From positions 5,210,001 to 5,274,000 of the forward strand of contig CM075993.1 in assembly GCA_038087875.1 (NCBI GenBank): a stretch of 64,000 bases of DNA, written 5' to 3'. Origin of the DNA: Malacoraja senta (Eukaryota). Below are positions 34,836-57,907 of this stretch, piece after piece. Position 1 is the first letter of the stretch. Every line of letters starts with the position of its first letter. A program made the position numbers and the translations under genes. Below the pieces are notes generated by a model, which did no database searches, was not told the origin of the DNA, and saw only the letters and a list, made by a program, of their open reading frames with translations.

Positions 34836-35039
34836 AAATTCAGACTGAAATTAGGATGAATACCTTGATTGATTTTTGGAGGCTCTATCAATAAGTGACA
34901 CATAAATGCCTGCCAAACTAGTTTCAGTTGAACTAATATTTTAACCTATTGAGCTAATTGATGAAGCAGTCAGTAATATTATTAATTCCCAACTTAAATT
35001 GCCTGTGCAGGAAAGAAATTAAAGCATAATCCTCTTAGA

Positions 35040-35134
35040 ATGATGGGTGGACTCGCATCAAACACAACGCTGCCTCCACTTTTTACTGATGATGATGTAT
35101 CAAAGGAGAGTGCGGACCTGACAGTCGATGCTGG
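35040..35134 (+). CDS. HMG20A: HMG20A first coding exon (MMGGLASNTTLPPLFTDDDVSKESADLTVDA-G)
   Basis: Translation resembles the vertebrate HMG20A N-terminus (TLPPLF.D.D.SKES.DL). Tandem ATG at 35040 and 35043. Donor GG|GTATGT, phase 2. Not in the ORF track. Confidence 0.9.
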
Positions 35135-35679
35135 GTATGTTTTGCATTCTTTTACTAAAAATTACTAAAACACTATAATGTTGCACACAACGAATAAATA
35201 ATTGGAATGCGACAGATGCCAAAATCTGGATGGTAAATAAGTCGGCAGTATCTTTAAAAAAAAATTCGGAACATTGTTTTATGCCTGCGGACTGTGGACT
35301 ATGAGATGTGGTGACTGTTGTTGCAGGATGGATCCATAGATCTCGACTTTCCCCCAGCTTTCCTATATTCTGAAAGGCTGCAGAATCTTTCAGTCATGCC
35401 ATATTCAGACTTGGTAGGAGTGTTTTACTGATAAGAAAAATGTATAATTGTGCTAACTTTCCTTTGTTCTGTGAGTGGAGCCCGAGAAGCACTGAGCGAC
35501 GTTTGTGCTCATTGTAATCTTGCCACTCCCGTCTGACGAATCAATTAAAGATTGCCATGGTTTACCTTGAACAGTTTTTGTTGCTATCTGCTTTTTAAAG
35601 AACAAACTTTGACACTATGGGGGTGGAGGGGAGGGGGCAGCTGGGAAGGTGGGTGGAGTGGTAAGATGGGAACTAGAGG

Positions 35680-36412
35680 TGTACGAAGCAACTGCAGATG
35701 CTGGTTTAAACCGAAGATAGACACAAAATACTGGAGTAACTCAGGCAGCATCTCTGGAGTGGGTGTTGTTTTGGATCGAGACCAGTGGATAGAGGATGGG
35801 TGAACACTAATTTGCAGACTAAGCCAGGCAAAGGAGGGGCTGGTGTAGAGCTGAGAGAAAGGGGGAGGATGAGGGGGAACGCAATGACTACCAGTACTGG
35901 AATCTGGTAAGTAAAGAAGATGATAATGGGAACCATTAGGTGCAAGTAAAGATCAGACCAAACCAGACCAGATGGGGAGGAAGCCTGTGGGTGAAGTGTG
36001 TGTGTAGTGGGTGGTTGGAACCAGAAGAGGGGGAGGGGGGCAAGAGAGACAAAAATGAGTGATTGGGGGGAGGGGGGGGGGGGGGTTGGGAAAGGGCAGC
36101 AAAAATGCCTTGTTCTTGCAATGCTGCCGCAAGTAAGAATTTTATTCTTCTGGTTCATTTCTGGTGCACATGACAAATACATTTTTTGGACTCTTGAAAT
36201 GAGAAGCCCAGAGTAAAGTTGGAAGGGGAAAGGAGAGAGAAGTAAACCAACACTAGGCGAGCTTGCCTTCCGTTGTACAATGCAATGTTCCTGCCATTGG
36301 GTTGCACATAATCCAGGCAGAATATGAGGTGTTGTTCCTCAAGCTTGTGTTGGCAGTTGGGAAGACCGTGGATTGCCGGGTTGGTGTGGGAATGGAGAGG
36401 GGAATCGAACTG
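35680..36412 (-). mobile_element. Decayed Penelope-like element 3' end
   Basis: The - strand near 36310-36346 encodes KLEEQHLIFCLDY (same motif as at 19402), followed by a purine-rich pLTR. Confidence 0.6.
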
Positions 36413-37241
36413 AAGTAGATCTTCAAAACCTTTCTTAGGAAATGAGTTCCAGCGCTGATTCTTATGACGTATAATTTTAGACTCTAGTCTCCCAGGATCC
36501 TTCTCAGTTTCCTTTCTTCAGAAACGGCCATGGTGAGCAGCAATATGAGGCTATTTAAACGTGGGGATTCCAAAAAAAGCCAGTTCTTTCTCAATCTGTG
36601 TGGACCAACTTGCATTCAGAAGCAGTACATTTTTAAGAATCCTTCGCTATCCCTGGAGTGCAAATGATATTGTGGATACAGTGCTGTGTAAACCACTCAG
36701 CCAGTAATTCATCTCCAACGTGCTGCCTTGGAAAGATGCCATGTATTCTCACTTTCTAAACCGAACCAAACCGATTTACACCAAATAGATCTTGAACTCA
36801 AAAATGTGTACATCGTTATATTAAAGATTTGCCACCATATTTTTTTAGTCTTGTTGAATGATTTCAGCAATTGTATGAGTTTATCGGTTTCATCATAATT
36901 GAAGTCTTGGCTTCTGTTTATTGAAACGTAGTGAAGTGTGTACATTGACAGTAATTTGCCCATTTCCAAATCATAGTCATTGTAAACGTGTATTAACCAT
37001 GAACAACCATAGAGTAGGGGGCAAGTATTAGAGGTACTATATCTGATCTATAAGAGTGTGCGTAAATGAGAAGTCTGTTGTTTGACTTAAATCAATGCTG
37101 TCACTAGATTTACTTATTATTCCGGGTATGCTGCAGAAAAAAATAGGATGCACTAAAGTCTGTGATAACTTCGATTGACTTCATCAGCACCACTGCTGAT
37201 AACAAACCTGTTACTGATGATACTTTTGTGTTACAAAGTCG

Positions 37242-37242
<1 letters not shown>

Positions 37243-37272
<30 letters not shown>

Positions 37273-37306
37273 GATATAGATATCTATTTATATATTTATA
37301 TATTTA
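37243..37306. repeat. Imperfect (TA)n microsatellite
   Basis: Directly visible. Confidence 0.9.
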
Positions 37307-37393
37307 TTTCTGAGACCAAATCCAAATTTCAATACTTAAATTTGATATGACACTGCTAAGTGCTAACACACAGTTTAAGTGGACATCATATTT

Positions 37394-37666
37394 AAGAAGG
37401 AACTGCAGATGCTGGAAAATTGAAGGTAGACAAAAATGCTGGAGAAACTCAGCGGGTGCAGCAGCATCTATGGAGCGAAGGAAATAGGCAACGTTTTGGG
37501 CCGAAACCCTGAAGGAAATAGGCAATGTTTCGGGCCGAAACCCTGAAGGAAATAGGCAACGTTTCGGGACGAAACCCGGAAGGGTTTCGGCCCGAAACGT
37601 TGCCTATTTCCTTCGCTCCATAGATGCTGCTGCACCTGCTGAGTTTCTCCAGCACTTTTGTCTACC
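37394..37666. mobile_element. Young palindromic Penelope-type pLTR insertion with internal tandem repeats
   Basis: Near-perfect arms, three tandem copies of gaaggaaataggcaacgtttcgggccgaaaccc, TSD-like ttaagtgg(a/c)catcat at 37375-37389 and 37667-37681. Confidence 0.8.
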
Positions 37667-38576
37667 TTAAGTGGCCATCATTTGAAAATATGATTAACAT
37701 CATTATCAGCAGAAAGTAAATTAATTATCTTTCAAAAGTCTATGAAATGCATTGATAAATTTTGTGATGGAATGTTCTTGGGCAGTTTTACAATTATATT
37801 GCGGTAGCTTTTGTGATTTCTCCAGTGGTCTGCCTGTCAGGGAAATCACCAGCGGATGCAAACTGCTGGAGTAACTCAGCAGGTCAGGCAACATCTCTGC
37901 TGTTTCGGGTTGAGACCCTTCTTCAGACTGGAAGGGTCTTGACCCAAAACGTCACCTATCCGTGTTCTCCAGAGATGCTGCCTGATCCACTGAGTTACTC
38001 CAGCACTTTGTGTACTTTTGTGCAGTACCCACCATCTGCAGTTACTTGTTTCAACATGGGAATCACCAGCCTGGAATGCATTCAGTAATCACATCAAACT
38101 GTTTCCAGCTGGATTATTTCTTTAAAAAAATGCACCATCAACATCATAGACACAAAACATAATGAATTTGCTGTAACAAATGTCCACGGGCATTGACCTC
38201 AGCCAACCTGAATAAAGAGATGGACAAAGAGGCATCTGAAATGTTCTCAGCCAGAATGTAGGATTTATCTCTGGGATATTGGTGGGGATGTGAATTCCTT
38301 GCTCTGTGCTCTGTGAGAAACATCAGTGTAGCAATTTTATACTTCCGGAAAGATACTTAATTACGGTGATTTCATGGCGGTTTCACGTCTTTCACTGGTA
38401 ATGGTGGTGAGAACAGTTTATGATGGGAGAAAAAAAATCAATGTTCGAGAAGCAAATTTCAGTGGAACTTTTGCTGTACTTTATTTGTGCCAGTTCAGTA
38501 AACAGGCATGAGAATATCAGTATGCTTGCAGATTCTTTGAACAACAAATGTTTTTTTTCCTTCCTTTTGAATGCAG

Positions 38577-38724
38577 ATTTTCAGGCGCAGAAGGCTCATA
38601 CAGTTCAGGGGTGTCTCAGTCTATGAACAATCCAGAGTTTGTGGAGGATCTGTCTCAGGTGCAGTTACTGCAGAATGAGTCCCCTCGGGCAGCAGATACC
38701 AATGAGCAGAGAAGTGAGGAGGAG
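38577..38724 (+). CDS. HMG20A: HMG20A coding exon 2 (FSGAEGSYSSGVSQSMNNPEFVEDLSQVQLLQNESPRAADTNEQRSEEE)
   Basis: Polypyrimidine tract and GCAG acceptor, GAG|GTGAGT donor, 148 nt, phase 2 to 0. NNPEFVEDLSQ.QLLQ.ES matches HMG20A. Confidence 0.95.
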
Positions 38725-39166
38725 GTGAGTGGGGAAAACCATCTGTGTTCATCCCTTGGTTGTTAAACCACACAGTTAAACCATTGTATCCACGGGAACA
38801 AGCAGTCCTACTTTGTTTTTGCACAAAAGTCCACACTTCTCTGCCAATTAATTTGCACTATTCAAGTTCCACATTTTGTGCCATTCATGAGAACCTGTGA
38901 ATTGCAAAAGCTGAACATGCAGTGGAAACATTAAAAAATATGGTTCGTTTTTGTGCGGAGGAGGCAGATCAGAGCTGAGTGGATAAAGAGCATCGCAGTG
39001 GCCAACAGAGATGTCATCCATTGTCTCGGCGTTGGAGGAAAACAACGTCAGCTACAAAGCTTTTTCTTTATTTATCTTTTCCATTCCGATTTCTCACTGG
39101 TAATTGTGACCCCCACCTCCTCCCAAAGAGAAACAAAATTCTACCTCTCATTTAGATTATTATCAA

Positions 39167-39905
39167 GGGCAGCACAGTGGCGCAGCTGGTAGAGCTTCTG
39201 CCTCACATCACCGGAGACCCGGGTTCGATCCTGACCTCAGGTACTCTCTGTGTGGCGTTTTGCTAATTTGACCGCTTAGGTTTCCTCTCTCATCTCAAAA
39301 ACAATCGGGTTTAAGTTAATTGCCCTCTATAAAATTGCTCCTAACGTGAATGGAGTGGATGAGAAATCAAGATAACAGTGTGAATTGGTGAGTGTGGCTC
39401 AGTGGACTGAAGGACATGTTTCCATGTTGTATCTCTATCTAAATTATGGTTCTTATATGGTGTTGTATGTCCCTCTGTACCTCACCCAAGTACCCATATT
39501 GCAGTTATAACCTGGTATCTACAGCGCAGACTCCCTGTGCAAAACGTAGATGCAGAAATACGGGCTGTCTGTGTGGCATCCTTTCACTGGGTATCTCATC
39601 AGGCTAGAAATCAAATGTCCTTTCAAGACTGAGTACACAGTTGACACAGTGGTGCAGCAGAAGAGTTGCAGCCTCACAGCACCAGAGACCCGGGTTCGAT
39701 CCTGACTACGGGTGCTGTCTGTACAGAGTTTGCATGTTCTCCCTATGGCCGATTGGATTTTCTCAGGGTACTCGAGTTTCCTCCCACATTCCAAAGATGT
39801 GCAGGTTTGTAGGCTAATTGGCTTCTGTAAGTTATTCCGAGAGTGTAGGATAGAACTAGTCTACGGGATGGACTCAGTGGGCTGAAATGCCTGTTTCAAC
39901 TCTAA
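39167..39905 (+). mobile_element. Two V-SINE (HE1-like) copies (39167-39440, 39643-39905)
   Basis: Both have the A-box-like tggcgcagc/tggtgcagc head and the B box gggttcgatcc. Confidence 0.82.
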
Positions 39906-42900
39906 ATCTCAACAAGATGTTATCAGTGCAATTAAAACTGAGTATACGTTATATCTTCAGTGGATGAATTGAGAAGGGTCATATTTTTATCACTGTCGAG
40001 CAATATTCTGAGAAAAGATTTATCATAAAACCATTTTTTTCCTATTGAATGGAAACTGAAAATATTCAAAACTAATCAGAACCTTATTTCTAAAATGCTG
40101 CAGCATTCTCTCCTGTGGTGATTATATTATGATTGGAATAGTGGGCTGGCCAGGAGGATTTTATGTTAAAGTGAATTACCAACCAAACCCAGCAATCACG
40201 AGTGTGTAGAAAATAATTGCAGATGCTGGTGTCTATACTGAAGATAGCAAAGTGCTGGAGTTACGCAGCGAGTCAGGCAGCATCTCTGGAGGAAAAGGAT
40301 GCTTAACGTTTCGGGTCAGAACCCTTCTTCAGACAAGCAATCACAAGGCAGTTATGGTGCTGCAAATGCACTCCAGTTGAGTTGAGCTATTTCATTCTTG
40401 TTGGACTCCCAGTCCGACTAAGTGGCTGGCTCCCAAGTAACATATCGTAAATGATGAGAACCTAATTATGCACCTTTTGAATTGCAATTCACCACAGGTT
40501 CACAGGCAAGCTGGCATCTTAATTTGGGTATGTGTGCTGGCACTGACTCAGATGAATGGAGACGTTGAGTCACCTATTGACATTGGGGTTATTTGGGAAC
40601 TGTAAAATAGACCGAGCTGGAAACTGGCTCCTATTTTGAAATCCAACCCAGATTGGTGGGATGAAAGTCTTTGCCTCAAGGCTGTAAAGATTCCATGTGA
40701 AAATGAGTTCTGAGAGTCTCAGTCAAGCTTGCAGCACAAGCTTGTTTTGTTTGGCACTTAATTAAAATCCCTTCAAGTGCCAATAGGTTATGGGGAAAAT
40801 GACACATTGGTGCAGTCAGATTGGAGCTGAGACAGTACAGTGTTTAATTCCTCTTTACCCACTTGTACTTGATGTTTACTCTGTGTGACTGAAATGATTA
40901 TTGTTCTGTTCCCCAGTACTGATGTCTTTTAAATCGATGAGCACAACATTCACATCAAAAACAGTCACTACAGGAAAGAGCAGTATTGAACATTTTGAAT
41001 ATTATCCACTGTAATCCTTTTGTTGTTCAGCACAGTGCATGCCTTTGTTTTTAAAATCACAAGGATGACCTCATGGTTTTCATCCTGGTTATCCTTCTTT
41101 TATGTCCAGAGACACAGTAATATATTTGCTGCCTGCCAACATTATTATGCGTAACATGATAACCAGCTTGGTGGTTAGAGTAAGTTTTGGAAAAGTTCAA
41201 ATACAAACACCGAGACAGGTGTAAAAATCAATCAATCACAAGTTAGGACTTTATAAATGCCCAGAAACCAGTTTCCTGTGGGGTCATTCTTCTAAACATC
41301 TGAAAGACCTGTTAGATTGTGGCCAAGGTTTGGGTTTATAGATGCACATCAAGATTGCGCACACCTTTGTAATAAACTCACAATCCATCAGATCATTAAG
41401 ACTGTAGTTGTTGATGTTTGAAGGTCCTTTTTGCATGATAGTCATCTTCACATGTGCTGCTCTATTAGTTGACTCCTATAAACCAGCGCAAATGCCATCC
41501 AGATGACTAATGTTCATTTCGAAGCCGAGTCTAATCCCTCAGAGTCATAGAACAATGCATCATAGGCCCTTCAGCCCGCCTTGTCCATGCCGACCAAGTT
41601 GGTATACTGGGCTAGTCCCATTTGCCTTCATTTGAGCCACAGTCCTCTGAACCCTTCCTATCAATATATCTGCCCAAATGTCTTTTAAAAGCCATAATTG
41701 TATCCACTTCAAAGTTTAAAGGAGATGTTCGGTGCAGGCATTTTATTACACATAGGGGTGGTGGGTGTCTTGAACGTGCTGCCAAGGGTGGTGGTGGAGG
41801 CAGAATAGATAGTATTGTTTCAGAGACTTTCAGATTGGCATGAGGATATAGAGGGTATGGATTATCTGCAGGCAGATGAGATTAATTTACTTAGCATGTT
41901 TGGCACAGACTTTATGGGCTAAAGGGCCTATTCCCGTGTTGTACTTCATGTTCTATTTTCTATAGCCTCGTGGCAGCTCATTCCAGATACAGACAACTCT
42001 CTAAATGAAGAGTTTACTAACAGGTCTTGAAAAAAGGGTTGCATCGAACAATTCCAGTTGTAGGTAAGAAAATCAGAAAAGACTATGAATTTGAGACATT
42101 TTATTTTATGGGGCACTATCTTCATTGTGTGCTTGTGTATACATGAAAATTATCTTTGGCAATTTGTGCTAAAACTGATCTGGGTCTTGCATTGATAGGA
42201 AATGTCAAATACGAGAGGAATAGCTTTAAGGTGAGGGGGGGGGGGGCAAAGTTTAATGGAGAGGTGCGAGGAAAGTTTTTTACACAAGGTGTTGAGTGCC
42301 TGAAACATGCAGCCATGGGTGGTGGGGGAGGCAAATATGATTGTGGCGATTAAGTGGTTTTTGGATCGGCAGTGAATGGAGGGGTATGGATTATGTGCAG
42401 GCAGATAAGTGTTGGCCTTGGCATCATGTTCAGCACAGACGTGGGCTGAAAGGCCTGTTCTTGTGCTGTACTGTAGGTTCTAATAGAATTTTGTGGCTGC
42501 AAAGATGGAAAGTATTTAATCTGATTGCCTTTGCATACAAGATTGCTGTGATTCATGCAAGCAGTGGCAATTATCCTCTGTTCCCACTGATTGGCAACCC
42601 ACGCATCATCCGCATCACTGATGCACTGTGGCTGCAATGTGCATTAACTGCATAATGAGCTGCACTTACTCCAACACTACCTATCACCAAGATGGTTACG
42701 AGTAGCAGGCAAGTGTAAATCAGTCGCAGACTTCCCTCCGATTAAATACCCCGTGTGACTTAGAAATGTGTCAGCGATCCTTCCTTGCAGGATCTAAATT
42801 TTGGATTTTCCTACCTAACAACATTGAGGGAGCACTTTCACCGGAAGGATTATGGTGGTCCAAGAAGGAGCTCATCACCAACTCTCTTTAGCCAGAGGGT

Positions 42901-43534
42901 GGTGAATCTGTGGAATTCATTGGCACAGATGGCGGAGGAGGCCAAGACATCGGGTATTTTTAATCCTCAAAGGCCGTTGGTTTTAATGTTACTTTCATAG
43001 CAACATCCACATCCTGTGCTTTCTTAAAAAAAGTAATCGTAGACATGACATGCAATAAGTTAAGCTACTGATTTGAATGGAAGTTGGGCAAGGCAATATT
43101 AAATTGGTCAGAAGAAGAGTCCAAACCTGAACATCGTTTGACCATTTCCTTCTAAGCGCCTAACCACTGAAAAGCACTTAGTGTTTTGCTGAAGCCAATA
43201 CTAAAGTTGGGTGATTCTTCTGGTTGAGAATGAATCAAGTCTGCAGTGAACATTAGCTTCTGCTTTTGCTTGTGGTTTGGGAGTGTTGAGTGTAATGTGT
43301 GTGTGTGGTGCACAGAAACTGGAATGCCATGTGTGGAAACTTACATAAAGCCGCTCTAGTTTCTTTGAATTAAAAAAAAAACTTCCTTCGAGGATCTGAA
43401 GATGGGTCCCGACCCAAAATGTCGCCTCTCTATGTTCGCCAAAGATGCTGCCTGACCCGCTGGATTACTCCAGCACTTTGTGTCCTGCACCTGCAGTTCC
43501 TAGTTTCTATTTTTCTTTGACTTTTATTGCGCAG

Positions 43535-43747
43535 AAATCTGGCAAGAAGGCAGCCTGGCCCAAGGGAAGGAAAAGGAAAAAAGCGACCAAGGACAGCAAT
43601 GCTCCCAAAGCCCCGCTCACTGGGTATGTGAGGTTCCTCAACCAGCGCCGGGAGCAGCTTCGATCCCAGCGGCCGGATGTGCCATTCTCCGAAATCACGA
43701 GGATGTTGGGGAATGAATGGAGTAAACTGCCTGCGGACGATAAACAG
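43535..43747 (+). CDS. HMG20A: HMG20A coding exon 3, basic region and HMG box
   Basis: [61 protein letters not shown] acceptor, CAG|GTATTG donor, 213 nt, phase 0 to 0. Confidence 0.97.
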
Positions 43748-44176
43748 GTATTGAAACGTTGGGTTGGAAACCAAGTGTAACGTATCTGACATTCCGCAGC
43801 TGTTGACAAGTTCACAAGTTATAGGAGTAGAATTAGGCAATTCAGCCCTTCGAGTCTGCCCCGCCATTCAATCATGGTTGAACTCTGTATCCTAATCCCA
43901 CTTTCCTGCCTTCTCCCCAAAACCCTTGAGACACGTTCGAATCAATAATTTGTCGATCCCTGCCTTAAAAAACACTTGTTGACCACATGGATGCAATCTG
44001 AGTGATTACTTATGATAGAAGACCTTCTCCATAACATGATCAACAGAGCATGTGTTAATGTATGGGATGGTGAGCATGAAGATGTGATTTGTTGCAGCAA
44101 CTGTGCACAGTGACAGATTTGTATGCCTACAAGTGTCTAGGCACGATTTCTCCTGTTGATAAAATTGTCTTGTTTA

Positions 44177-44484
44177 AGTTTAGATTTTTAGTGTAGAGAT
44201 ACATCATGGAAAGAGCCCCATACTGACCGTCGATCACCTGTTCGCACTAATTCGGTTATGCCACTTTCTCATCCATTCTCTACACACTAGGGGCAAATTA
44301 AACCTAGGGCCAATCAACCTATAAGCCCGCACGCCTTTGGAATGTGGGAGGAAACCAGAGCACCCAGAGAAACTCTCGTAGTGTCGGGGAGAACGTGTAA
44401 ACTCCACAGAGACAGCACCCGAGGGCTGGATTGAACCTGGGTCTCTGGCACTGTGAGCTCTACCAGCTGCGTCATTGTGCCGCC
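44177..44484 (-). mobile_element. V-SINE (HE1-like)
   Basis: Full-length reverse-complement copy. Confidence 0.8.
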
Positions 44485-45132
44485 TAATTCAGTTGCATTT
44501 GAATGAATCTGGAATGGTTTCCTCTACCATCGACATCTAATGTTTTATGGACAAAGTAAAGACCAAGGTTCCATAAATGGGGTCAATGTAAAGACTAAGA
44601 TACAAAATAAATAAGAACACAACCATCATCTGATACCAAACTGAGGTTTTGAAAAATGTAAAGGTTGGGAATTAAAAGAAAAGTGGTTCTATGTGGTTTG
44701 AATTAAATATGAGATTTTGTATGGAAAGTATTGATCTCTAACATCTAATGTGTTATCACACAAGCTCTGTTTGCATGCATTTAGTATTAGAGCAGCCTGC
44801 AGTGATACAACTGACTGGGGAATTGATTTGGTTCATTACAATTCTTTACTGGAATCGTATGTTTACTTGGGTCAGCAAGGACATGCTATCTGCAGTCAGG
44901 TATTGTTAGTTTAAAAAATCATAAAACGACCAAGCAGAGATTGTTACAAGTGGCTATGAACAGAGGTTTTTAATCACAGTGTACCCTTGTGACTACACAA
45001 TTTGTCTGTCTGCCATGCCCTGCCACTGATGTCTAGGTGAATAACTGATCAGTTTGTGTTCTTTGCTTGGCATTATCCCCGGATAAATTCTTAATGCACC
45101 CCATCCCTGATCATTCTTTTCTGTCTGTCCAG

Positions 45133-45265
45133 CATTATTTAGATGAGGCAGAGAAAGACAAAGAGCGTTACATGAAGGAACTGGAGCAGTACCAACAGAC
45201 TGAGGCTTACAAAAGATTCAGCCAGAAAGCAGATGATAAACGACGGACAAAAGGGCTTAGCCAAG
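45133..45265 (+). CDS. HMG20A: HMG20A coding exon 4, HMG box helix 3
   Basis: HYLDEAEKDKERYMKELEQYQQTEAYKRFSQK. CCAG acceptor, AAG|GTAATA donor, 133 nt, phase 0 to 1. Confidence 0.97.
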
Positions 45266-45655
45266 GTAATAATTGAAGCTTGTTTTGACTGAAGCTGTGT
45301 CAGCTGTTTCATTACAGCTTGAATTAGCTCTAAAAATCTGAAATGTGTACCTTTTTTCACCTTTTTTAATCTTCAGTGTGCTCCTTTTTAAATGTCTGCA
45401 TGAAGGCTTTTTATAACGCTAAACGCCTGTAGCCAAGTGCAGACACAACTCCCTCAAATGGCCAGAATATACAAGATTGAATTTGGCGGATTAACGTACA
45501 TATTCAGGAGAGAAGGATAAAACTAGCCCAAAGAAAACATTGTGTTCATGTTGTTCTTTGACTTGATCCAGGTTAGAATCTGACATTATAAATGGATTGA
45601 CTTCTCCAAGTATTAACACGTGGAATGTTATTTTTATATCTCCCCTGCCCTTTAG

Positions 45656-45693
45656 ATGAAGGATCTCGAGCCAATAACATTCCTGTTACAGAG
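45656..45693 (+). CDS. HMG20A: HMG20A coding exon 5, 38-nt linker micro-exon ((D)EGSRANNIPVTE)
   Basis: Strong pyrimidine tract and TTTAG acceptor, GAG|GTAAGA donor. Phase 1 to 0 is exactly what is needed to join the flanking exons in frame. Confidence 0.88.
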
Positions 45694-46125
45694 GTAAGAT
45701 TCTTCTTATATTTTTTTCAGCACCAAAGCTAAAGAAACAATATATTTAATAAAAATCTCTAATAAAGATAAGTTTGCGTGATTGAAGACAAGAAGCAATA
45801 TGCCAAAGTCTATCTGAAGGACATCAGCAAATGGTTGAGAAAGCAAATGATTTAGCTGCCTCTTTCTACTGAAAGTACAGACTGGGGGTCTCTAGTCACT
45901 CAGTATCTCACCAGGGTGGTAGATGTGAAGGGCAGGATTTATCATGGGTTTTAATGTGAAAACTTAACCCATCACTTAATTTTAATTGGTTTTAGAAATT
46001 GTTGTATTCAGAAAGATGTCTCTCTTCAGAAAAGGTGTTCTCTCAATTTTGCACAATGGTTTGTAGGAAATTTCCATCAGGTTAAAAAAAAAAGGACGGG
46101 TTACATCTCGAGGATCAATGGATTT

Positions 46126-47090
46126 CATAAGGTCATAAGGAATAGTCTACTCAGCCATTCAATCATGGCTGAGCTATCTCTCCCTCCTAACCCCATTCTC
46201 CTGCCTTCTCCCCATAACCTCTGACACCTGAACTAATCAAAAATCCATCTCTGCCTTAAAAATATCCACTGACTTGGCCTCCACCGCCTTCTGTGGCAAA
46301 GGGTTCCACAGATTCACCACCCTCTGACTAAAGACATTTCACCTAATTTCCTTCCGAAAAGAACGTCCTCTAATTCTGAGGCTATGACCTCTAGTCCTCT
46401 AGAGTCTAGAGCTCTAGACCTCCTACCAGTGGAAACATCCTCTCCACATCCACTCTATCCAAGCCTTTCACTGTTCTGCATGTTTCAATGAGGTTCCCCC
46501 TCATTCTTCTGAACTCCAGCCAGTACAGGCCCAGTGGCAATAAGCGCTCATCATAGGTTAACCAACCCATTCCTGGGATCACTCTTGGAAACCTCCTCTG
46601 GACCCTCTCCAGAGCCAGCACGTCCTTCCTCAGAAATGGTGCCCAAAATTGCTCACTCTATTCCAAATGTGGCCTTACCAGCACCTCATAGAGCTTCAAT
46701 ATTACATCCCTGTTTTTGTATACAGGCCCTGTTGAAATAAATGCTAGCATTGAGTTTGCTTTCTTTACTGCTGATTTGACTTGCAAATTAACCTTTTGGC
46801 AATCCTGCACCAGCACTCTCGAGTTCCTTTGCACCTCTGATTTCTGGATTCTCTCCCCATTTAGAAAATCGTCTACACGCCTTTATTCCTCCTGCCAAAA
46901 TGCATGACTCCACACATTGCTACACTCTATTCCATCTGCCACTTCTCTGCCCAATCTCCCAACCTGTCCAAGTCCTTCTGCAGAGTCCCTGCTTTCTCTA
47001 TGCTACCTGCCCCTCTGCCTATTTTCATATCATCCGCAAACTTTCTCACAAAGGCTTCAATTCCCTCGTACAAATCATTAATATATAAAT
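46126..47090 (-). mobile_element. CR1-clade LINE 3' fragment
   Basis: YINDLYEGIEAFVRKFADDMKIG...LQKDLDRLGDWAEKWQME (RT FADD motif) and LERVQRRFPRVIPGM...RRMRGNLIET. Confidence 0.92.
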
Positions 47091-49557
47091 TTGTAGGATC
47101 TTTCTCAAAGAGTTTTTGAAAGATGCTGCACCAAAACAGCCATTCAACCCACTTAGTCCATGCTGACAAACAACCACACATTTTTTCCCTAATCCTACCA
47201 TAATCCATTTTATTCACCCCACCGTCTCAGCTCCTCCACAGATACTCATTCTCACCTCCATGCCAGGGGCAATTTACAATAGAGAATTCAACTACCTGCA
47301 CATTTTTGGGATGTGGAAGGAAGCTGGAGTACTCGGAGGTAAACACAAGGAACTGCAGATGCTGTTTTTCAAAGAAAGACATTATTGGAGTTACTCGGGT
47401 CAGATAGCATTTCTGGAGGACATGGATAGGTGATGTTTCATGTTGCGACCCTTCTTCAGCCTGATCCACACTGTAACTTTGAGAACATGCAAACTCCACA
47501 TTGACAGCACTGGAGATCAGAACTGAACCCGGTTCACTGGACCTGTGAAGCACAAATAGCTTACAAATGTTATCTGATCAGCAGTACTATCAATGTGAAG
47601 TTTGCACGTTCTCATAGTAGATTAGTCTGAAGAAGGGTCCCGACCCGAAATGTCGCCTATCCATGTTCTCCAGCGATGCTGCCCAACCTGCTGACTTACT
47701 CCAGCACCTACTGTCTTTTTTTGTAAGCCAGCACCTGCAGTTCCTTGCTCATTGACTAGTGCCATTGTGAAATCCTATTTGGTAGTAGGGTTTAGTGTGA
47801 TATGTTCCAGGCTCATGTTGCAGCAGATATTTTAGCCTCTTCTGGCCAGTCTTCTTTGATGAACAAAGTATCATAAGGAAAGTGGCAGATGGAAGGTTAA
47901 CATCATGAAAAAGCAGGGAAATGTGGCTATATTGTAAAATGAATTTCAACAAAATGTTTCAATTTTGACAAATGATAACCTGAACAAATAGCTGACAAAT
48001 GATATTCCACTAAATTTCTCTCAATTTGGAAGTAATTGTTTGTATGGTGGATCAGACATGGGCTCTGCATTTCTTAGAATGATACAAATAGTGCTTCAAA
48101 GAAAACCCTATGTATTGAGAGATTAGATTTCGCGACCTTGGCAATGACACCATCTCCACAGGGGAATGTGCTATTCCTGAGAAAATAAGCAAAGAAATTG
48201 CTTTCTGGGCATTATAATTGTATATGGGAATGATTTTCCAGACTCCAGCTCATTGACTGCTGCCATTAACTGGAATTTATGTTATCGAAATAAACAGTGG
48301 AACTTGTGAGAGTCAAGAGGCTAAAATGTCTGTCCAGATAATCACAGACTCAACTATCTGTAGCTTTGACCTGCAAGACTCCAATGGTTTTCTACTGACA
48401 TTAAGGCCATCCTTACCAATAAAGTAATAATTAATAGGCATGACATTATGATCATGCAATTTTTAATGTAGCTTCAAATGGGGTGAGTGAAGGTACAATG
48501 ATTTGTAATTTGTAATTTGTGAACAAAATGGATTTTAATTACCCGGGAAATGCGTACAAACTCCATACAGGCAGGTGCTGTCTGTATGGAGTTTGTAACC
48601 ATTTCCCGGGTCTTCCAGTTTCCTCCCACGCTCCAAAGATGTGCAGGTTTGTAGGTTAATTGGCTTTGGTAAAGAATGTAAATTGTCCCCAGTGTATAGG
48701 ATAGTGCCAGTGTACAGGAATTGCCGGTTGGCACAGACTTCCAATTAATTAAAAACATCATGATTTTGTGCCTTTGTCTTATAAGTGTTCTGTGAAGCAT
48801 AAAAGTGAAATGCATCTTGATTGAGAGATGCAGTTAAAGGAAAAGGGGACTATCCCTAAACAGCACATGGGTACCTGTTGCTCAACAGCACATGACGTCC
48901 GACACTGAACAGCTCATGGGGGTGCAAAGGTAGTTGATAATTTTGAATTCCCAGCAATGTACTTGAAGACATGGAGTCATAGAGAGAACCAACATGGATG
49001 TTTGCTCTGACCTTCAACCACTCATTTGCACTAATCTGTCATTAAACCTATGTTTATTCTCCATTCAATCTCATCAATTCCCCCTAGACTCTACCCCACA
49101 CCTAAAAAAAATTAGCGGTAATTTACAATGGCCAATTGATATCAAGCTGCACAGCTGTGGGACATAGCAGGAGACCAGAGGAAAATACACACTGAAAACG
49201 TGCAAACTCCACACTCGGAACCCAAGTATATCTAAGAACCCAGGGCAGCACAGTGGCGCAGCGATAGAATTACTGCCTTGCAACGCTTGCAGCACTGGAG
49301 ACCCGGGTTCGATCCCGACTATGGGTGCTGTATGTATGGATTTTGTACGTTCTCCCCGTGACCTGTGAGGTTTTCACTGGGTGCTCTGGTTTCACACATA
49401 TACACTAGACCAAGTGAGAACCGTTGGGTCCCTGTCACACGGGAGGCTTGGTTCCCCAAACCAACCCATTCCCCAACGCAATATTGCACCACAAACTAAC
49501 ATATATAGATATATATTTATATCTATATAAATATATTGGGCACATTTTATTTTACAG

Positions 49558-49636
49558 AAGCAAGGTGTTGGCCTGAAGGATCAATCAGTGTTGGATATTC
49601 CTATTTTCTCTGAAGAATTTTTGGACCACAGTAAAG
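49558..49636 (+). CDS. HMG20A: HMG20A coding exon 6 (KQGVGLKDQSVLDIPIFSEEFLDHSK)
   Basis: DIPIF.EEFL.HSK motif of the HMG20 family. TTTACAG acceptor, AAG|GTAGGA donor, 79 nt, phase 0 to 1. Confidence 0.95.
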
Positions 49637-51396
49637 GTAGGAAGAACCAATATAAATATTCTAGACAGGCCAGAATGCCGCCTGGATTAGGGGGGGTATT
49701 ATCTATGAAGAGAGGTTGGACAAGGACAAACTTGATTTGTTTTCTCTGGAATGCCAGAGTTTGATAGGAGACCTGATGGAACCATGATAGGCATAGATAA
49801 AGTAGACGGGTAGAACCTTTTGTTGGAGACTAGAGGGCATAGCTTGAAGGTGAGAGGGGCAAAGTTGAAAGGAGATGAGTGAAGCAATTTTCTATTACAC
49901 GGAATGGCTCAGCCCAGGTTGGCTGTGTAGACAGATTTGATAGTGGCATTTAACAAGCTTTTAATAGGCATGTGGACATGCAGACAATGGGGGGGGGATA
50001 TGAATAATGTGCAGGAAGAGGAAATTAGTTTAACGTGGCATCATATTTGACATGGACATTTGGGGCCAAAGGGCCTTTTCCTGTGCTGTACTTTTCGACA
50101 TTCTAGTCCTTTCAACTTTGGGGGGGGGGGGGGGGGGGAATAAAAGCAAAGATACACATAGAAAACAAGTCTTTTGGCCCAAACAGACCATTTCAGCTAA
50201 GTTCTTGTCACATTTGACCATTCTGCTCACATATCCTTTCAACTGCCTTTGGTCTAAAATACCAATAGCTGACCCGGGATTCCACAGCTTCATTATTTTT
50301 AATGTGGGGAATTTTCTCATGCCTTTCAGTTCTAAATGGTTCAGATTCAAATTTGTACCAAGCCTTTCATTCCTGTAGTAATAACTGGAAACGATTTACT
50401 TCAGTATACCCTGTTTAATCTTCCATAATTGTAAACATTTTTTTATAATCTCAGTGGTTCTTTATTATCACATGTATCTAGGCGCAGCGAAATATGTTTT
50501 TGCGTACAGTTCAGTATATTATCACAACGCATAGCACAATCCTAGATTAAGTACAAAGTGTATAGAAATAGTTCACTGACTGTACAAACTCATCCCATAA
50601 TCTGAATACGAAACAGAATAAACTTATTTCAGGTTTGCTCTTATTTATATTTCCTCATTAAAAATGATGTGCATTAATAATCATAATAATACTACTATTA
50701 AAAAAGAATCCAAGAATCTCTCGAAGGCATTTCCCCCCCCCCACCCCCCCCCCCCCAGGTAGTTGGGATGAGCAAAATTACATGAATGTTGAGTTGTTAA
50801 GTATGTTTGGGTCTGAGATCAACTGTGCGAGATTTGAGATTTACAAGGTTCAGGCAGGAAAATAATCCAAATATGAATCGGGCAAGGTTTTATTAAATGG
50901 CGGAGCAGGCGTCATGGGTCATTTGGCATTCTTCTGCTTTATATGAGGAAGGGTCTCAGGGCGAAACATCACCTATTCCTTCTCTCCAGAGATGCTGCCT
51001 GTCCCGCTGAGTTACTCCAGCATTTTGTGTCTATCTTCGGTTTAAACCAGCATCTGCACTTCCTTCCTACACACTTCTGCTTTATTTCCCCTGAAGCCTA
51101 CATCTTTCTGACTGACTGCGCACAGCACTCTGCAATTCTAATTGTAGAGGTCTGCCGTTAAATCTTTGCTGTTATATATTACTAATATTGAGATATAAAC
51201 CTAGAATACTATTAGTTTATTTGTGTCATCTTGAATGCATGTTCCACTGCTCTGCTATGCAATAGGGCTTATTCAACTCTGTACAATTACTTTTTGTATT
51301 TCAAGTTTCTGGACTTTGAGGGTTTTTTTTTATACTTCGTCTCCTCATCACTAACCAAATCTAAAATGTAATAATTTTTTTTTTTTTCATGTGCAG

Positions 51397-51612
51397 CTCG
51401 GGAGCGGGAGCTCCGTCAGCTACGGAAATCCAATATAGAATATGAAGAGCGAAACGCGGCTTTGCAGAAACACGTGGAGAGCATGAAGACGGCGGTGGAG
51501 AAGCTGGAGATCGACGTGATGCAAGAGCGGAACAGGAATGTGCTCCTTCAGCAGCACTTGGACACCTTGCGGCAGGCACTGACGTCCAGCTTTGCCACTG
51601 TACCGTTGCCAG
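51397..51612 (+). CDS. HMG20A: HMG20A coding exon 7, coiled coil
   Basis: (A)RERELRQLRKSNIEYEERNAALQKHVESMKTAVEKLEIDVMQERNRNVLLQQHLDTLRQALTSSFATVPLP. Poly-T tract and GCAG acceptor, CAG|GTAATT donor, 216 nt, phase 1 to 1. Confidence 0.97.
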
Positions 51613-53204
51613 GTAATTAAACCTTTGTCAATTCAGTGCATATACTTTGTGAGGTGGAAAGGTGAAAGCATTTCCAAGTTAGATTATCCAACATACAAAC
51701 AATAGCCAGGCACAAAGGGCATCCTGATTACTATTGAGAAAGTGTGGTGCACCTTTGATGCAAAATATACATAGTCTGGTGCATGCACGGTTTATATACT
51801 CAGACTGGGAGTTGGGACAAAGATAGACACAAAGTGCTGGAGTAATTCAGCGGGTCAGACAGCATCTCTGGAGAAAAAGAATAGGTGACATTTTGTGCTG
51901 GTACCCTTCTTCAATAGGGGTGGAGGAGTGAGGCGGGAACTGGAGGTAGAAAAAGACTATTCGGAAAAGAAAAAGAATAATCTAATCTGACAGGTAATTT
52001 CTCGCCTCAAGATCTCCCCCCCACCTCCACTTTAAGTCTGAAGAAGGGTCCTGACCTGATACATCACCTATCCTTTTTCTCCAGGGATGCTGCCTGACCC
52101 GCTTAGAAACTCCAGCAATTTTGCGACTATCTTTGGTATAAACCAGCATTTGCATGTTGGACTGAAGATGGCCATCACATTTTTAGTGATATATGAAATC
52201 TAATCTGCAGGTTAGTTGCGGTCCGACCAATACAGGTAAAGTCTCCAGTTTCAATCTCTATTTTAAAAGCTAGGTCAGAAATAGAGGCTTTCATGTAGAA
52301 ACAAGGAACTGCAGATGCTGGTTTACACAAAACGCTAAAGAAACTCGGCATAGTCTATAATCTGTCTGAAGAAGGGTGCCAACCTCAAGTCAAGTCAAGA
52401 GAGTTTACTGTCATGTGTCCCAGATAGGACAATGACATTCTTGCTTTGCTGCAGCACAACAGAATATTGTAGGCATAAATACAGAACAGTTCAGTGTGTC
52501 TATATAGCATAGACCATATATATATACACTTAAATAAGCATGACCTATCCATGCTCTCCAGAGATGCTGCCTGGCCTGCTGGGTTACTCCAGTACTTTGT
52601 GTCGTTTTGTGGCTTTTATGTTCCTTTGCTAAATGAGAATCAATAAAGTAAGGTAGGTATTGACTCATTGACAGCCATTGATTCCTTTTAGTGAACAAAT
52701 GTCTTCAAAGATTCTATAGAGGTTTTGCTATATTACTTTGACACTGAAGTTCTGATTTTGGTCAGGAATAAGTAGATTTGATATTTCTAATGGGAAAGGG
52801 GCCCCCTATTTTGGATATATGTACAAAGAGGGAATGTTGCCAAGATTCTACAATGCCTTTTCACCAGCTCTGAGCTTTCAATAATGGGCTCTAATTAAAC
52901 CCTATAGATTGTGTTGTTCATAAATAAGGGTGGCAACAAAAGACTGGCAGGGAAGACCATTATGTGCAAAGCACACTGTTGTCTGTTTGCAAAATGTTGT
53001 TTCACTCAAGATAATGGAATGGAAGATGAGAAGCAGAGTTCAGTGTGCAGTCACTATTGTGCAATTAGCTTATACAGCTGACTAATTTCCATCCCATAGT
53101 TCAAATAAATGGTGTGCTGCAATTTTGTCTGCCTGTGGACTTCTATAGTGACACATCAGCTCAGATCTTGTTCGTAATTTAACAACAGGTTTGTAAACAA
53201 GGCC

Positions 53205-53985
53205 AGTTTAGTTTATATTTTTGCACGTGTACCGAGGTATAGTGAAAAGCTTTTTATGCTGTTGTGTGCCAACAAGATTATACATGATTACAATCAAACT
53301 GTCCACGGTAAAGGGAATAATGTTTAGTGCAAGGTAAAGTCCGATTAAAGATAGTCTGAGGGTCTCCAATGAGGTAGATGGAAGGTCAGGACCGCGCTCT
53401 GGTTGGTGACAGGATGGTTCAGTTACCTGACAGCAGCTGGGAAGAAACAGTCCCTGAATCTGGAGGTGTGCGTTTTCACACTTCTGTACCTCTTGCCTGA
53501 TGGGAGAGGGGAGAAGAGGGAGTGTCTGGGGTGTGACTGTTCCTTGTTTATGCTGCTGGCAGCGACACAAGGCAGCGTGAAGTGTTGATGGTGTCAATGG
53601 AAGGGAGGTACACAAAAATGCTGGAGAAACTCAGCGGGTGCAGCAGCATCTATGGAGCGAAGGAAATAGGCAACGTTTTGGGCCGAAACCCTTCTTCAGA
53701 CCTCCTCCTCTCAATGGAAGGGAGGTTGGTTTATGTGATGGTCTGTACTGCGTCTGCAATTGTTTGCGGTCTTGGATGGAGCTGTTCCCAAACCTTGCTG
53801 TGATGCATCCCGAAAAATGCTTTCTGCGGCGAATCAGTAGAAGTGGGTGAGAGTTATGGGGGCATGCTGAACTTCCTAAGCTGCCTATGGAAGGATATGC
53901 GTTGGCGTGCATTCCTGGCCATTGCTACGAAATGTGTGGTCCAGGACAAGTTGCTGGTGATATTTACTCCTAGGAATTTGAAGTA
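53205..53985 (-). mobile_element. Rex1/Babar-like LINE fragment interrupted by a Penelope pLTR piece (53610-53710)
   Basis: SGCITARFGNSSIQDRKQLQ. The insert is bounded by a perfect 16-nt repeat tcaatggaagggaggt (53594-53609 / 53711-53726). Confidence 0.8.
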
Positions 53986-54477
53986 ATGGTACAAGGGATG
54001 GTAGGGATATGATTCCAAAGCAAAGATATTTCAGGCCACTTTGATGTAGAAAATTGACAGTTTTTGTATCTGTATAAGTTATTTTCCTCATTAATGCACA
54101 ATAAAAAGAATCTACTTTGCAAATCTCTGAAAGGCACCTGATGATTTTCTTCCTGAAAAGCTATATGTCATTCCTAATCTAACAGGGTTTGGTGAAGTGA
54201 GTTACTTTTCCAAGTGCTCCTTACACAGGTTCCATGCAGATTCTTGGGGAACTCGTACACTGTAGTGACCACTTAATATGATCCTTAAAGTGCCTCACTG
54301 TTGACCATCCCCGGTTCCCATGAGGAAGCCATGTGTACGTGGTTACGTTTAAGGAGGTATTCCGACTGGAACGGATGCTCTCTGGAGGAATGCCAAGACC
54401 ATTGTGAAGCACAAAGGATGGCATGTTTTTAACCGTGCTTTTAATTCTGTATTTAGAATCTTTTTTTAACGTTGCAG

Positions 54478-54614
54478 GTTCTGGGGAGACGCCCACCTTG
54501 GATACCATTGATTCCTACATGAGGAAATTACACGGCATTATTCTGTCCAACCCACAAAGTAGTGAGAATCTCATTACTACAGTGCGTGACTTAGTTAGTC
54601 GACTCGACAGGTGA
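54478..54614 (+). CDS. HMG20A: HMG20A last main coding exon ((G)SGETPTLDTIDSYMRKLHGIILSNPQSSENLITTVRDLVSRLDR*)
   Basis: Matches the HMG20A C-terminus. TTGCAG acceptor, TGA at 54612-54614. Summed exons give 1056 nt from ATG 35043, i.e. 351 aa plus stop. Confidence 0.95.
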
Positions 54615-55646: not shown

Positions 55647-56913
55647 CTATTAATGTGCCAGGTGGTTTCCAGTTGAATCATTGTGCAAAATGATTGCCCC
55701 AGCATATGTTTAGTGCCATAACCTTGCCAGAAGAGCAACAAAATTGAGATTTAAGTTTCCCTTTGAAGCTGCAATATGACAGATTCGACGTGCCTTTAAA
55801 AAAATATATCTATTGATTGCAACCATTAAAGCTTCAAAAATTAGTTCCTCCACAATGGAGTTTGAAGTATGAAGTTTAACGGGTGTGGGCAGCCACTGTG
55901 CACATTCCCAGCAAGGAATTTATTCCACCATGGGGAAAAAGCGGAAGAATATTGGAGGAGGAAAGGAATGTTTATTTGACTCAAAGCCCATCAACATAAA
56001 ACTATTTTGGGTTTTAACATCTGTTTTCAACAATATTGCCTGATAGTGGCAGAAACCAGATGCAAAGGAAAAATATGTTGGATGATTAAACTGAGTAGTT
56101 TTAACATCAGCCTTCCAGTTCTGGTTAGATTATTAAATCTTTGTCATGTCGTAAGTCTTAATGGAACATAATGTTTTTTTTAAAGTTAACATGGATTCTT
56201 TCTCTTTGCTCCCTTCACCTAGTTGAAATTGTGGTTGACCGTCGAGGCATCAACATCTGTACACACAGCTGGGCAGTGGGAAATGGAAGGGGCCACTGGA
56301 TTTTCAATGGAAATAAAATGGCAGCTACTGTTTCTGGCCTTGAAATTTAGCCTGACCTGGAGAAGGATTGTTCCTTTCATTTCAAGAGACCTAACATCGG
56401 AGTGCTACAGGCGATTGCTGCTGGGTTGTCTCTTGTTAGTTGGCAGCGTTGATGTCTTTTTAACTCCTCCATGATTGTTCTCTTGCCAAATTTCCCTGTG
56501 TTAATTGTATGTTATGTTATGTAGCAATTGAGCCATTCTGTGCTCAAACAAAATCATTTATTTAATTATGTTTTGTTATAAAAGGATGTTTTCTCTCTTC
56601 TCTTTACGGGGCAGCAAATAAGCTGAAGTTGGGAACTCATCGGGTCATTTTCGGACACACTGGCTGGTACGCCAAATATCAGACTATTTATGATATGAAC
56701 AGGGTAACCTGTTGATGGAATTGGTCATAATACCATCAGAGTAGGACAGGAAAACAATGTTCGGTATCATCTTTTATCCCCAATGCTAACTAATGTAGCA
56801 GTGTCATAGAATTGTAAAAATTTGAAGCACAGGCCATTCTGCCCATTATGGTCATGTCTGGTATAAAAGAACTACTTAAGCTAACCTCACTTCCCAGTCC
56901 TCCGTCAGTTGCT

Positions 56914-57036
56914 TCTTGCGTAAGGCGTGCGCAGCCTAAAGTTGTAGGACAACTTGTTCTATTTGATTGTGCACACGGGGTTGATTGCATTCGTTGCAAC
57001 AGGGCGGACCACCTGAAGGTTGCAATCTCCCACCCC
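56914..57036 (-). mobile_element. 123-nt non-autonomous retroelement: 5' HDV-like ribozyme plus structured LINE-like 3' tail
   Basis: Flanked by imperfect direct repeats cgtcagttgct (56903-56913) and agtcagttact (57037-57047). The 5' boundary is G1 of the ribozyme. The 3' half has nested stems and ends ...CTTACGCAAGA(AG). Confidence 0.75.
56983..57036 (-). ncRNA. Minimal HDV-like (CPEB3-type) self-cleaving ribozyme, 54 nt
   Basis: The - strand reads GGGGUGG GA GAUUGCA ACC UUCAGGU GGU CCGCCCU GU UGCAA CGAA UGCAAUC. This parses as P1 (7 bp with G1-U wobble), P2 (7 bp perfect), P3 (3 bp), 7-nt L3, GU for P1.1, vestigial P4, and J4/2 CGAA with the catalytic C. Activity untested. Confidence 0.85.
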
Positions 57037-57907
57037 AGTCAGTTACTGATGAGAACAAAAATAGCCTTCCTATCGGCTATATTTCTGTCATTTACTTTAA
57101 ATGTGTGCACCTTATTAAGAGTGTTCTCCGCAAGGGAAATGTCATTCCCTGTTCCTCTTGTCAAGTCTTCTCAAAAGTTTACGACCTTGCGTAAGTACTG
57201 CAGCTGTTTTTCAGGAAAGCCGATTTCCAACCAGCCTCTCATGGTAACTAAGGCTGTCGAGTCTTGTAAATCTTCCGACAATATCGTGCTATAATTGGCC
57301 CCCATCCCCTGAAAGTTGGGAGGGAGTGAATAATCCGTCTTCTCCATCCTAGTTGGAGTATCTCCTTCAAAATACATTTTCATAAGGTCACATGATAGGA
57401 GCAGAATTAGGCTATTCGGCCCATCAAGTGTACCCCGCCATTCAATCATGGCTGATCTATCTCTCTCACCTAACCCCATTCTCCTGCCTTCTCCCCATAA
57501 CCCTTGACACCCGTACTAATCAAGAATCTATCTCTGCCTCAAGTAAGAGAAAAGAACTAAAGATAAGGAACTAAATCCATCCAATGAAAGATGATTGACC
57601 TGAAATGTTCAATTTGTTTCTCTGCAGCTGCTTTCTAATCTTATAGGGCATTTTTCAAATCTATTCTAGCATTTCTTGCTTGTATTTTAGATTTCCACAA
57701 TTTACAGTGCTTTGCTTCTGTAAATCAGCATTGATGCATCTTGCAGCGAGATGGTCACTGTTGCTGGAGAAGGAATTAGTGCTGATTGCAGAATCCAAGT
57801 GCATCCTGATTATTCACGCTGCCCACATCTTGCCACCCCGGCCCTACTGTGGAATAGATTACCCAAACTCTGCAGGCTTCCATGCAAAATGAGAACTTGA
57901 CCAACCT

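Follow-up and report, generated by a model that had tools for sequence, protein, structure and literature searches.

A 54-nt HDV-like ribozyme fold with a vestigial P4 at the head of a short bipartite retroposon, likely of a Vingi LINE, in Malacoraja senta

The locus

The window, i.e., the whole stretch of 64,000 nucleotides analyzed here, holds the coding exons of HMG20A (35013-54611, + strand), and its HMG-box exon is 97% identical to skate HMG20A. Antisense to this gene, 2.3 kb past its stop, lies a short repeat element of 125 bp that opens with an HDV-like fold of 54 nt. The region between gene and element contains a segment (56222-56375) that resembles an alternative C-terminal HMG20A exon annotated in the basking shark, and a noncoding flank (56300-56900), about 92-95% identical in contigs of three other organisms, which is possibly the HMG20A 3' UTR. 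Just upstream of the element, at 57393-57533, a second and far more abundant short repeat is present at very high depth. The features of the element, all on the minus strand, are as follows:

57038-57044, minus strand: 5' copy of the target-site duplication; 7 nt exact, 9/11 over 57047-57037; one base before G1
56912-57036, minus strand: whole non-autonomous retroposon (bipartite, internally deleted LINE), 125 bp
56983-57036, minus strand: HDV-like ribozyme fold, 54 nt; cut predicted, from the behavior of the family, between 57037 and 57036
57030-57036, minus strand: 5' strand of P1, pairing with 57007-57001; G1-U wobble
57029-57028, minus strand: J1/2, GA, 2 nt
57021-57027, minus strand: 5' strand of P2, pairing with 56989-56983
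57008-57020, minus strand: P3-L3-P3', with L3 at 57017-57011
57001-57007, minus strand: 3' strand of P1, from the descriptor parse
56994-57000, minus strand: G37-U38 (P1.1 partner; G-U at 57000-56999) and 5-nt P4 stub
56990-56993, minus strand: J4/2, with the catalytic-position C at 56993
56983-56989, minus strand: 3' strand of P2, from the descriptor parse
56958-56982, minus strand: remaining LINE 5' UTR that the short element retains (nt 55-79), from the LINE comparison
56953-56957, minus strand: 5-nt junction in place of about 2.9 kb of LINE sequence, from the LINE comparison
56912-56952, minus strand: 3' end of the LINE, with the last ORF codons, stop (56938-56936), short 3' UTR and (AAG)n tail
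56904-56910, minus strand: 3' copy of the target-site duplication; 9/11 over 56913-56903

An HDV-like fold without a P4 helix

Read from 57036 to 56983, the minus strand parses exactly into a nested double pseudoknot, with P1, P2, P3 and P1.1 in the right order. G1 (57036) is the first base of the element and opens P1, which contains the G1-U wobble and one further U-G pair; P2 is formed by seven Watson-Crick pairs out of seven, and P3 by three pairs out of three. The core bases U20, C22 and G25 in L3, as well as G37, are present (numbering as in PMC4836649). The P4 helix is absent: only 5 nt separate U38 from the catalytic C, both in the short element and in the LINE to which it is related. 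The nested 54-nt parse, the reduction of P4 to a stub and the position of the catalytic C (first base of J4/2, 56993) had all been proposed in a preliminary description of this DNA, and all three hold: every stem pairs as written, and a descriptor of the fold, for which this site is the only match on either strand of the 64-kb window, has none in 19,198,828 shuffled bases. A search of the minus strand, likewise proposed there, gave a divided result, in that our own descriptor found the site and the Rfam models did not: at the gathering score, no ribozyme match was obtained in the whole window, and at E<=10 the region 56700-57300 yielded nothing for the fold and one weak snoRNA match only. Judged by its pairing and its core bases, the fold is a real HDV-like fold with P4 reduced to a stub.

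A short element with defined ends

With the site and its surroundings (156 bases) as query, the genome (1.94 Gb) yielded 2,849 first-look candidates, 40 of which were scored; their matches mostly extend over query positions 13-16 to 139, corresponding to 57036 to 56912. In all 30 loci that were fetched, the window copy among them, the alignment begins at nt 1 or 2, reaches nt 125 and closes with (AAG)n, and an exact flanking repeat of 6-15 nt is found in 27 of them; being the best matches, these 30 loci are biased to full length. A 15-nt 3' anchor combined with three loose constraints has 3,448 exact matches in the genome, compared to 4 for the reversed control, and this figure is a lower bound on the copy number of the short element. 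When copies are picked by the 3' anchor alone, in genome order, 28/30 extend to nt 1-2. The most frequent form genome-wide has a length of 135 bp, with a linker 10 nt longer than in the window copy.

The 5' end is also marked by target-site duplications. Among 36 loci examined (30 position-ordered and six hand-picked), 30 could be parsed, and 27 of these carry a duplication whose edge is within 1 nt of G1 in 23 cases (at G1 in 15, +1 in 6, -1 in 2, -2 in 2, +2 in 1, and -5 in 1). In mismatched control pairs, a repeat of 8 or more occurs in 6/159. Upstream of G1, no sequence common to the copies was found, with at most 7/12 identical positions among 25 copies. By these copies and boundaries, the 54-nt fold is the 5' head of a non-coding retroposon of 125-135 bp: what had been described as a stand-alone ribozyme is one of thousands of retroposon-head copies.

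Both ends of the short element recur in a LINE of the same genome. Nucleotides 2-79 of the window element are 88% identical to the LINE copy L215, and the segment from nt 85/90 to nt 125 of the short element is 83-94% identical to LINE copies. On this comparison, the short element is composed of the first 79 and the last 41 bases of a single-ORF LINE of about 3 kb. Tested by its ends and tail, which are both shared with the LINE, by the lack of coding capacity and by its duplications, it is a bipartite non-autonomous LINE, and a unit of 125 bp (79-nt head plus 41-nt tail) would have sufficed for mobilization in trans. A SINE in the strict sense, which has a head derived from tRNA, 7SL or 5S (PMC4494074), was considered and rejected: the short element aligns to the LINE from nt 2, which leaves no room for such a head. 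Locus L061, a candidate LINE, turned out to be a truncated short copy, and a 5'-side pattern that excludes the interior of the short element retrieved no LINE, only short copies that have indels or a damaged 3' part. Viral contigs gave 52 pattern matches, none of them a relative.

The partner LINE

A tail pattern without the interior of the short element has 177 matches in the genome; 30 were fetched, and two of these (L075, L095) contain coding sequence that runs into the last ~35 nt of the short element. The coding part of this LINE has 477 genome candidates, and 28 of the 30 copies fetched have, as judged by eye, the shared 3' segment. Walking in the 5' direction led to only 19 places in the genome that hold the ORF start. 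In several of these 5' ends, the same ribozyme precedes the first ATG by about 140 nt and shows two changes relative to the window copy: one U-G pair of P1 is replaced by U-A, and the second base of J4/2 is U, not G. One copy of about 2.8 kb (L215) combines head, tail and an 11-nt duplication. Two broader searches led elsewhere or far wider: 801 bases around L075 mainly retrieved another LINE family, and a genome search by endonuclease family hit 32,292 places, the best 150 of which were scored. Another LINE family in the same genome, represented by L127-L156, has many near-identical intact open frames of 1,277 aa and is apparently young.

The LINE copies translated here are all broken, and its ORF domains, APE (PF14529) and RT (PF00078), were identified on such copies; in five frames from three copies, no RNase H was detected at E<=0.1. 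A C-x-C...H...C motif is located at the C-terminus of the ORF. Protein relatives of the LINE are mostly intact single ORFs of ~1,000 aa on contigs of ~3.2 kb. Three long fused gene models among these relatives carry extra domains, which we take to be LTR-type RNase H. A search of the ESM Atlas yielded generic RT names only, and there is no Vingi-named protein among the 120 protein matches listed.

Many LINE copies have their head inverted onto a 3' piece (L162, L168, L174, L176, L182, L194, L195, L199, L204, L210, L225/L226, L230, L234, L240), and two have the head joined to such a piece in direct orientation (L172, L211). In a sample of 29 LINE copies picked by the 3' end alone, six have a head joined, mostly inverted, to a 3' piece as far as 2.4 kb away. 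The inverted 5' pieces reach about nt 3-16 (nt 33 in one case) and then stop, and the gap between inverted head and sense piece is at most ~27 nt. These inverted heads look like twin priming aimed at the very 5' end of the RNA, a process that may be the route by which bipartite elements arise, and their stops near nt 3-16 fit an RNA beginning at G1.

Heads in distant relatives

An alignment of 28 relatives led to 74 metagenome loci, 22 of which hold a 5' end; over the RT region, the relatives are 44-56% identical to the reference protein P0001 where measured. A strict descriptor places a head upstream of the endonuclease in 4/22 loci, and its one match in 538,528 control bases is L291, the same element as L292. 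A relaxed descriptor finds a head in 8/22 upstream segments, 150-230 nt before the endonuclease, compared to 0/44 controls. If the demand on J4/2 is dropped, the same eight loci are recovered, again with 0/44 controls, and C-N-A-A precedes the 3' strand of P2 in all eight. Despite their rewritten stems, every one of these eight distant heads retains the L3 core and the C at the catalytic position.

Covariation of P1, P2 and P3 among homologues, to which the preliminary description had looked as a check, is found at this distance: across eight parsed heads, both partners change in 13 of 17 pairs, a count that is partly circular because the descriptor demands pairing, whereas it does not demand the position or the C. 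The eight parsed heads are those of the window copy, the LINE and six relatives, three of which are close kin; L281 and L308, which have shorter stems, were left out. Among the short copies themselves, there is no covariation (4.5% divergence, scattered decay). In the strict and relaxed descriptor scans, 14/22 relatives have no head, and one of these, L287, gives a sub-threshold match to the Rfam CPEB3 model.

A second head type was noticed in three relatives (L242:953-1019, L245:303-369, and L254). It has two G's after the 3' strand of P1, a 5-nt J4/2 and a longer J1/2, and is closest to the Rfam model of the F. prausnitzii HDV ribozyme. Upstream of another LINE relative, L306:99-246 is a long, near-perfect inverted repeat with many matches to microRNA models, probably MITE-like.

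Probable self-cleavage and the 5' end of the element RNA

The observations comprise the copies, the duplications, the tail, the ends shared with the LINE, the presence of the same head on the LINE and the fixed place of the fold upstream of the ORF in distant relatives. On this basis, we are confident, short of certainty, that the 54 nt form the head of a retroposon from a likely Vingi LINE and that this head likely self-cleaves before G1, which would free the element RNA. A copy of the short element would be transcribed by read-through or from an internal promoter. The fold would then cut 5' of G1 by means of the J4/2 cytosine and Mg2+, as the family does (PMC4836649), and release a unit-length RNA from host transcripts, the uncapped end of which might be shielded by the ribozyme fold. 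In trans, the LINE protein could recognize the 41 nt at the 3' end along with the (AAG)n tail, and target-primed reverse transcription would run to the RNA's 5' end, such that new copies begin at G1 between duplications of 7-15 bp. By analogy with L1Tc/NARTc, whose ribozyme cuts before +1 (PMC3383444), self-cleavage before G1 likely sets the 5' end of the element RNA.

A precise 5' end at G1 would, by the example of Pr77, equally be expected from an internal promoter starting at +1. The head might be kept mainly as such a promoter, as a protein-binding handle or as a nuclease shield, with G1 as the transcription start and cleavage as a secondary or dispensable activity. Pr77 of L1Tc is indeed both promoter and ribozyme (PMC3383444), and for R2 a review reports that the ribozyme fold protects in the manner of a cap and that it can be left out of one donor design (PMC13708176). 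The short element also retains 25 nt beyond the ribozyme, and the head joined to a distant 3' piece in 6/29 LINE copies suggests that the head is held at the insertion site. However, a shield or handle would not need the catalytic C, and the C is kept, together with the L3 core, in 8/8 distant heads whose stems have been rewritten. Moreover, these roles and cleavage are not mutually exclusive. We regard it as unlikely, on balance, that cleavage is the lesser function, and favor the self-cleaving head.

If this is true, a P4-less 125-bp unit of ribozyme plus tail scatters thousands of self-cutting RNAs through the genome of a vertebrate, and the fish element shows the route in the proposal on the CPEB3 ribozyme made below. 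The minimal HDV-like ribozyme without P4 would thereby gain a defined job and host, as the head of a vertebrate retroposon with thousands of copies, and copies that lie in sense orientation within introns or 3' UTRs could cleave RNAs of the host.

Which clade of LINEs

The term Vingi denotes compact, single-ORF, APE-type elements without RNase H, the absence of which separates them from Ingi (PMC13708176), and Vingi is one of four clades reported with bipartite derivatives (PMC5786205). The partner LINE likely belongs to this clade, although none of the 120 listed protein matches is named Vingi. Compared by eye to named Vingi 5' ends, the 5' end shared by LINE and short element is alike in fold and core and differs in the stems; the close match belongs to the protein relative L292, whose protein is 44% identical to reference P0001, which in turn is 76% identical to the partner LINE.

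Alternatively, the partner LINE could be an RTE or Ingi element, in which case the finding would repeat clades already known to bear ribozymes. RTE elements have a single ORF with an APE domain in ~3 kb, and we know of no RTE element with the C-terminal C-x-C...H...C motif. Bipartite derivatives are made by RTE elements as well (PMC5786205), in keeping with this assignment. What speaks against it is that the LINE ORF has no RNase H match, that it does have the C-terminal motif, and that the head of L292 shares its type with the 5' ends of four named Vingi elements. An RTE or Ingi origin thus appears quite improbable to us, and the assignment to Vingi is retained as the likely one. Among the six ribozyme-bearing clades given by Kojima (2018; PMC5786205), as far as that text goes, Vingi is not included, so that Vingi would likely join them. 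Vingi proteins are in development as gene writers with native UTRs, and the review concerned makes no mention of a ribozyme in its account of them (PMC13708176).

Relation to the CPEB3 ribozyme

The preliminary description gave the L3 of the CPEB3 ribozyme, the GU after the 3' strand of P1 and the CGAA of J4/2, in agreement with the Rfam RF00622 consensus line and with PMC4836649. The short element has the same L3 (in the family majority), the same G-U and CGAA, and further resembles the CPEB3 ribozyme in its 2-nt J1/2, its P1 and P2 of 7 bp and its single C-G pair in P1.1. It differs in the stems, with 26/49 consensus positions alike outside P4 (by eye), has no Rfam match, is multicopy and lies outside the CPEB3 intron; "CPEB3-like" is therefore not to be taken in the family sense. 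A CPEB3 orthologue or family member was likewise rejected for the window site, which is below the RF00622 gathering score of 35 bits, occurs in thousands of copies and has HMG20A as its neighbor gene.

The close match to CPEB3 belongs to other Vingi heads. The head of L292 (L292:2188-2271) scores 55.6 bits against RF00622 (cut-off 35, E 2.5e-12), and among 20 relative loci scanned with Rfam, three others have sub-threshold HDV-type matches. L291:3116-3189 holds this head too, L291 and L292 being one and the same element. For four named Vingi elements, the supplement (file 1) to Kojima's study shows the 5' region (PMC5786205), and such named 5' ends follow CPEB3 nearly base by base. Compared by eye to the Rfam consensus line at positions outside P4, gharial Vingi-2_Gav agrees at 46/48 CPEB3 positions, from its base 2 and in the same numbering, and L292 at 45/49. 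In alligator SINE2-1_AMi, which is built from Vingi-2_Gav, the P4 stem of CPEB3 is present at 14/14.

Because L292 passes the CPEB3 cut-off and Vingi-2_Gav matches at 46/48 positions, the CPEB3 ribozyme may be a Vingi relic, and the human genome is reported to hold Vingi traces (PMC5753468). We lean, with some reserve, towards the combined proposal that the Vingi clade carries HDV-like ribozymes at +1 and that the CPEB3 ribozyme arose by domestication from the 5' end of an ancient Vingi, or from that of a short derivative such as the one described here. No link between CPEB3 and Vingi was found in the open literature; earlier papers on ribozymes or Vingi, or their supplements, may record it under the name Ingi. 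The term "CPEB3" is absent from the main text of Kojima 2018 (PMC5786205), and in a paper on CPEB3 ancestry (PMC8233481) no word begins with "origin", "transpos" or "retrotranspos". The likeness of Vingi heads to CPEB3 makes the origin of the CPEB3 ribozyme testable by alignments in mammalian and reptile genomes.

Comparison with known elements

In its organization, the short element works like NARTc/RIME and the R2 SIDEs and differs in P4, size and host, and probably in clade. NARTc and RIME, the partners of L1Tc and ingi (Pr77/L1TcRz), likewise share their first ~77-79 nt and last 30-41 nt with the LINE, have the ribozyme cut site at +1 of the element and are flanked by duplications of ~11 bp (PMC3383444). 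Compared to NARTc, the short element has a vertebrate host, 125-135 instead of 263 nt, thousands of copies, a P4 of 5 nt, (AAG)n instead of poly(A) and a partner without RNase H match. R2 SIDEs also lack an ORF, keep the ribozyme head and the 3' end and move in trans (PMC6765202), whereas the short element is not site-specific, has an APE-type LINE as its partner and has a ribozyme of 54 instead of ~184 nt. Non-autonomous Vingi derivatives (from Vingi-1_EE) and Bov-A are bipartite LINEs by internal deletion as well (PMC5786205).

Among ribozymes, the minimal HDV-like forms drz-Mtgn-1 and theta similarly have an absent or vestigial P4 and are traced to gut phages, often beside tRNAs (10.1101/2023.06.13.544163), whereas the fold in the window heads a vertebrate retroposon. 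A theta ribozyme, which cuts at the 3' end of a phage tRNA, was rejected on account of this context and of the lack of a tRNA in the window. Bipartite, ribozyme-headed LINE derivatives as such are known; new would be the P4-less bipartite retroposon of 125-135 bp from a likely Vingi LINE, and earlier papers or supplements may already record the element.

State and age of the window copy

The state of the ribozyme was assessed in 29 position-ordered short copies (L031 was dropped for an anchor mismatch), and 8/29 are intact on paper, passing a strict test of all stems and core bases. In 25 ungapped copies, the difference from the column majority is 4.5%, and the catalytic-position C, first in J4/2, is present in 22/25. 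The window copy passes the strict test, yet it differs from the family majority at three places (57013, 56997, 56995), not at the single core base that had been pointed out before. At 57013, it has G, whereas C is present in 23/25 and T in 2/25 sampled copies. ViennaRNA, which cannot model pseudoknots, predicts that this G allows a shifted P3 and that the changes at 56997 and 56995 create a hairpin with the 3' strand of P2. The predicted minimum of the window copy (-17.9 kcal/mol) combines the shifted P3 with the hairpin, which ties up this strand and G37; in a typical copy (L037), the decoys cannot form and the minimum is the native P1+P3 at -12.4 kcal/mol. Since all three private changes favor the decoy fold, the window copy is probably weakened in cleavage; this agrees, by prediction only, with the earlier suggestion that its L3 change attenuates it.

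Contigs of two other organisms run from the flanks into the element. One of them (X6) meets a 31-letter bridging rule and, with 39 nt inside the element, continues into the flank, so that the insertion is common to at least one other organism. Of 112 joints, the 15 listed include no empty site. Probably, the insertion is old and the window copy a passive passenger. One might suppose instead that it has been domesticated like the CPEB3 ribozyme and regulates host RNA near HMG20A, given that on paper neither the stems nor the catalytic C are damaged, that at least one other organism has the insertion too and that it lies 2.3 kb past the HMG20A stop. However, a shared insertion shows age and not selection, the three private changes favor the decoy (-17.9 compared to -12.4 kcal/mol for native P1+P3), and an element antisense to HMG20A cannot cut HMG20A RNA, which makes domestication highly improbable.

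That the fold is a chance parse of a repeat, as might be argued from the missing Rfam match and the high false-positive rate of a published loose descriptor for minimal ribozymes (10.1101/2023.06.13.544163), can practically be dismissed in view of zero matches in 19.2 Mb of shuffled sequence, the coincidence of G1 with the insertion boundary and the recurrence of the fold at the same position in distant relatives, where it is built from other stems.

Other repeats in the window

Further repeats are scattered over the window. A minus-strand open frame of 350 aa (9976-11028) has a weak zf-RVT match and is probably the end of another LINE. Two more minus-strand segments, an ALKBH8_N-like match at 1089-1559 and a weak RT match at 25276-25626, appear to be fragments of other retrotransposons. 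At 37477-37583, a 34-nt unit is present in three tandem copies; since similar text recurs in the flanks of other loci, this unit is probably the tail of a common repeat.
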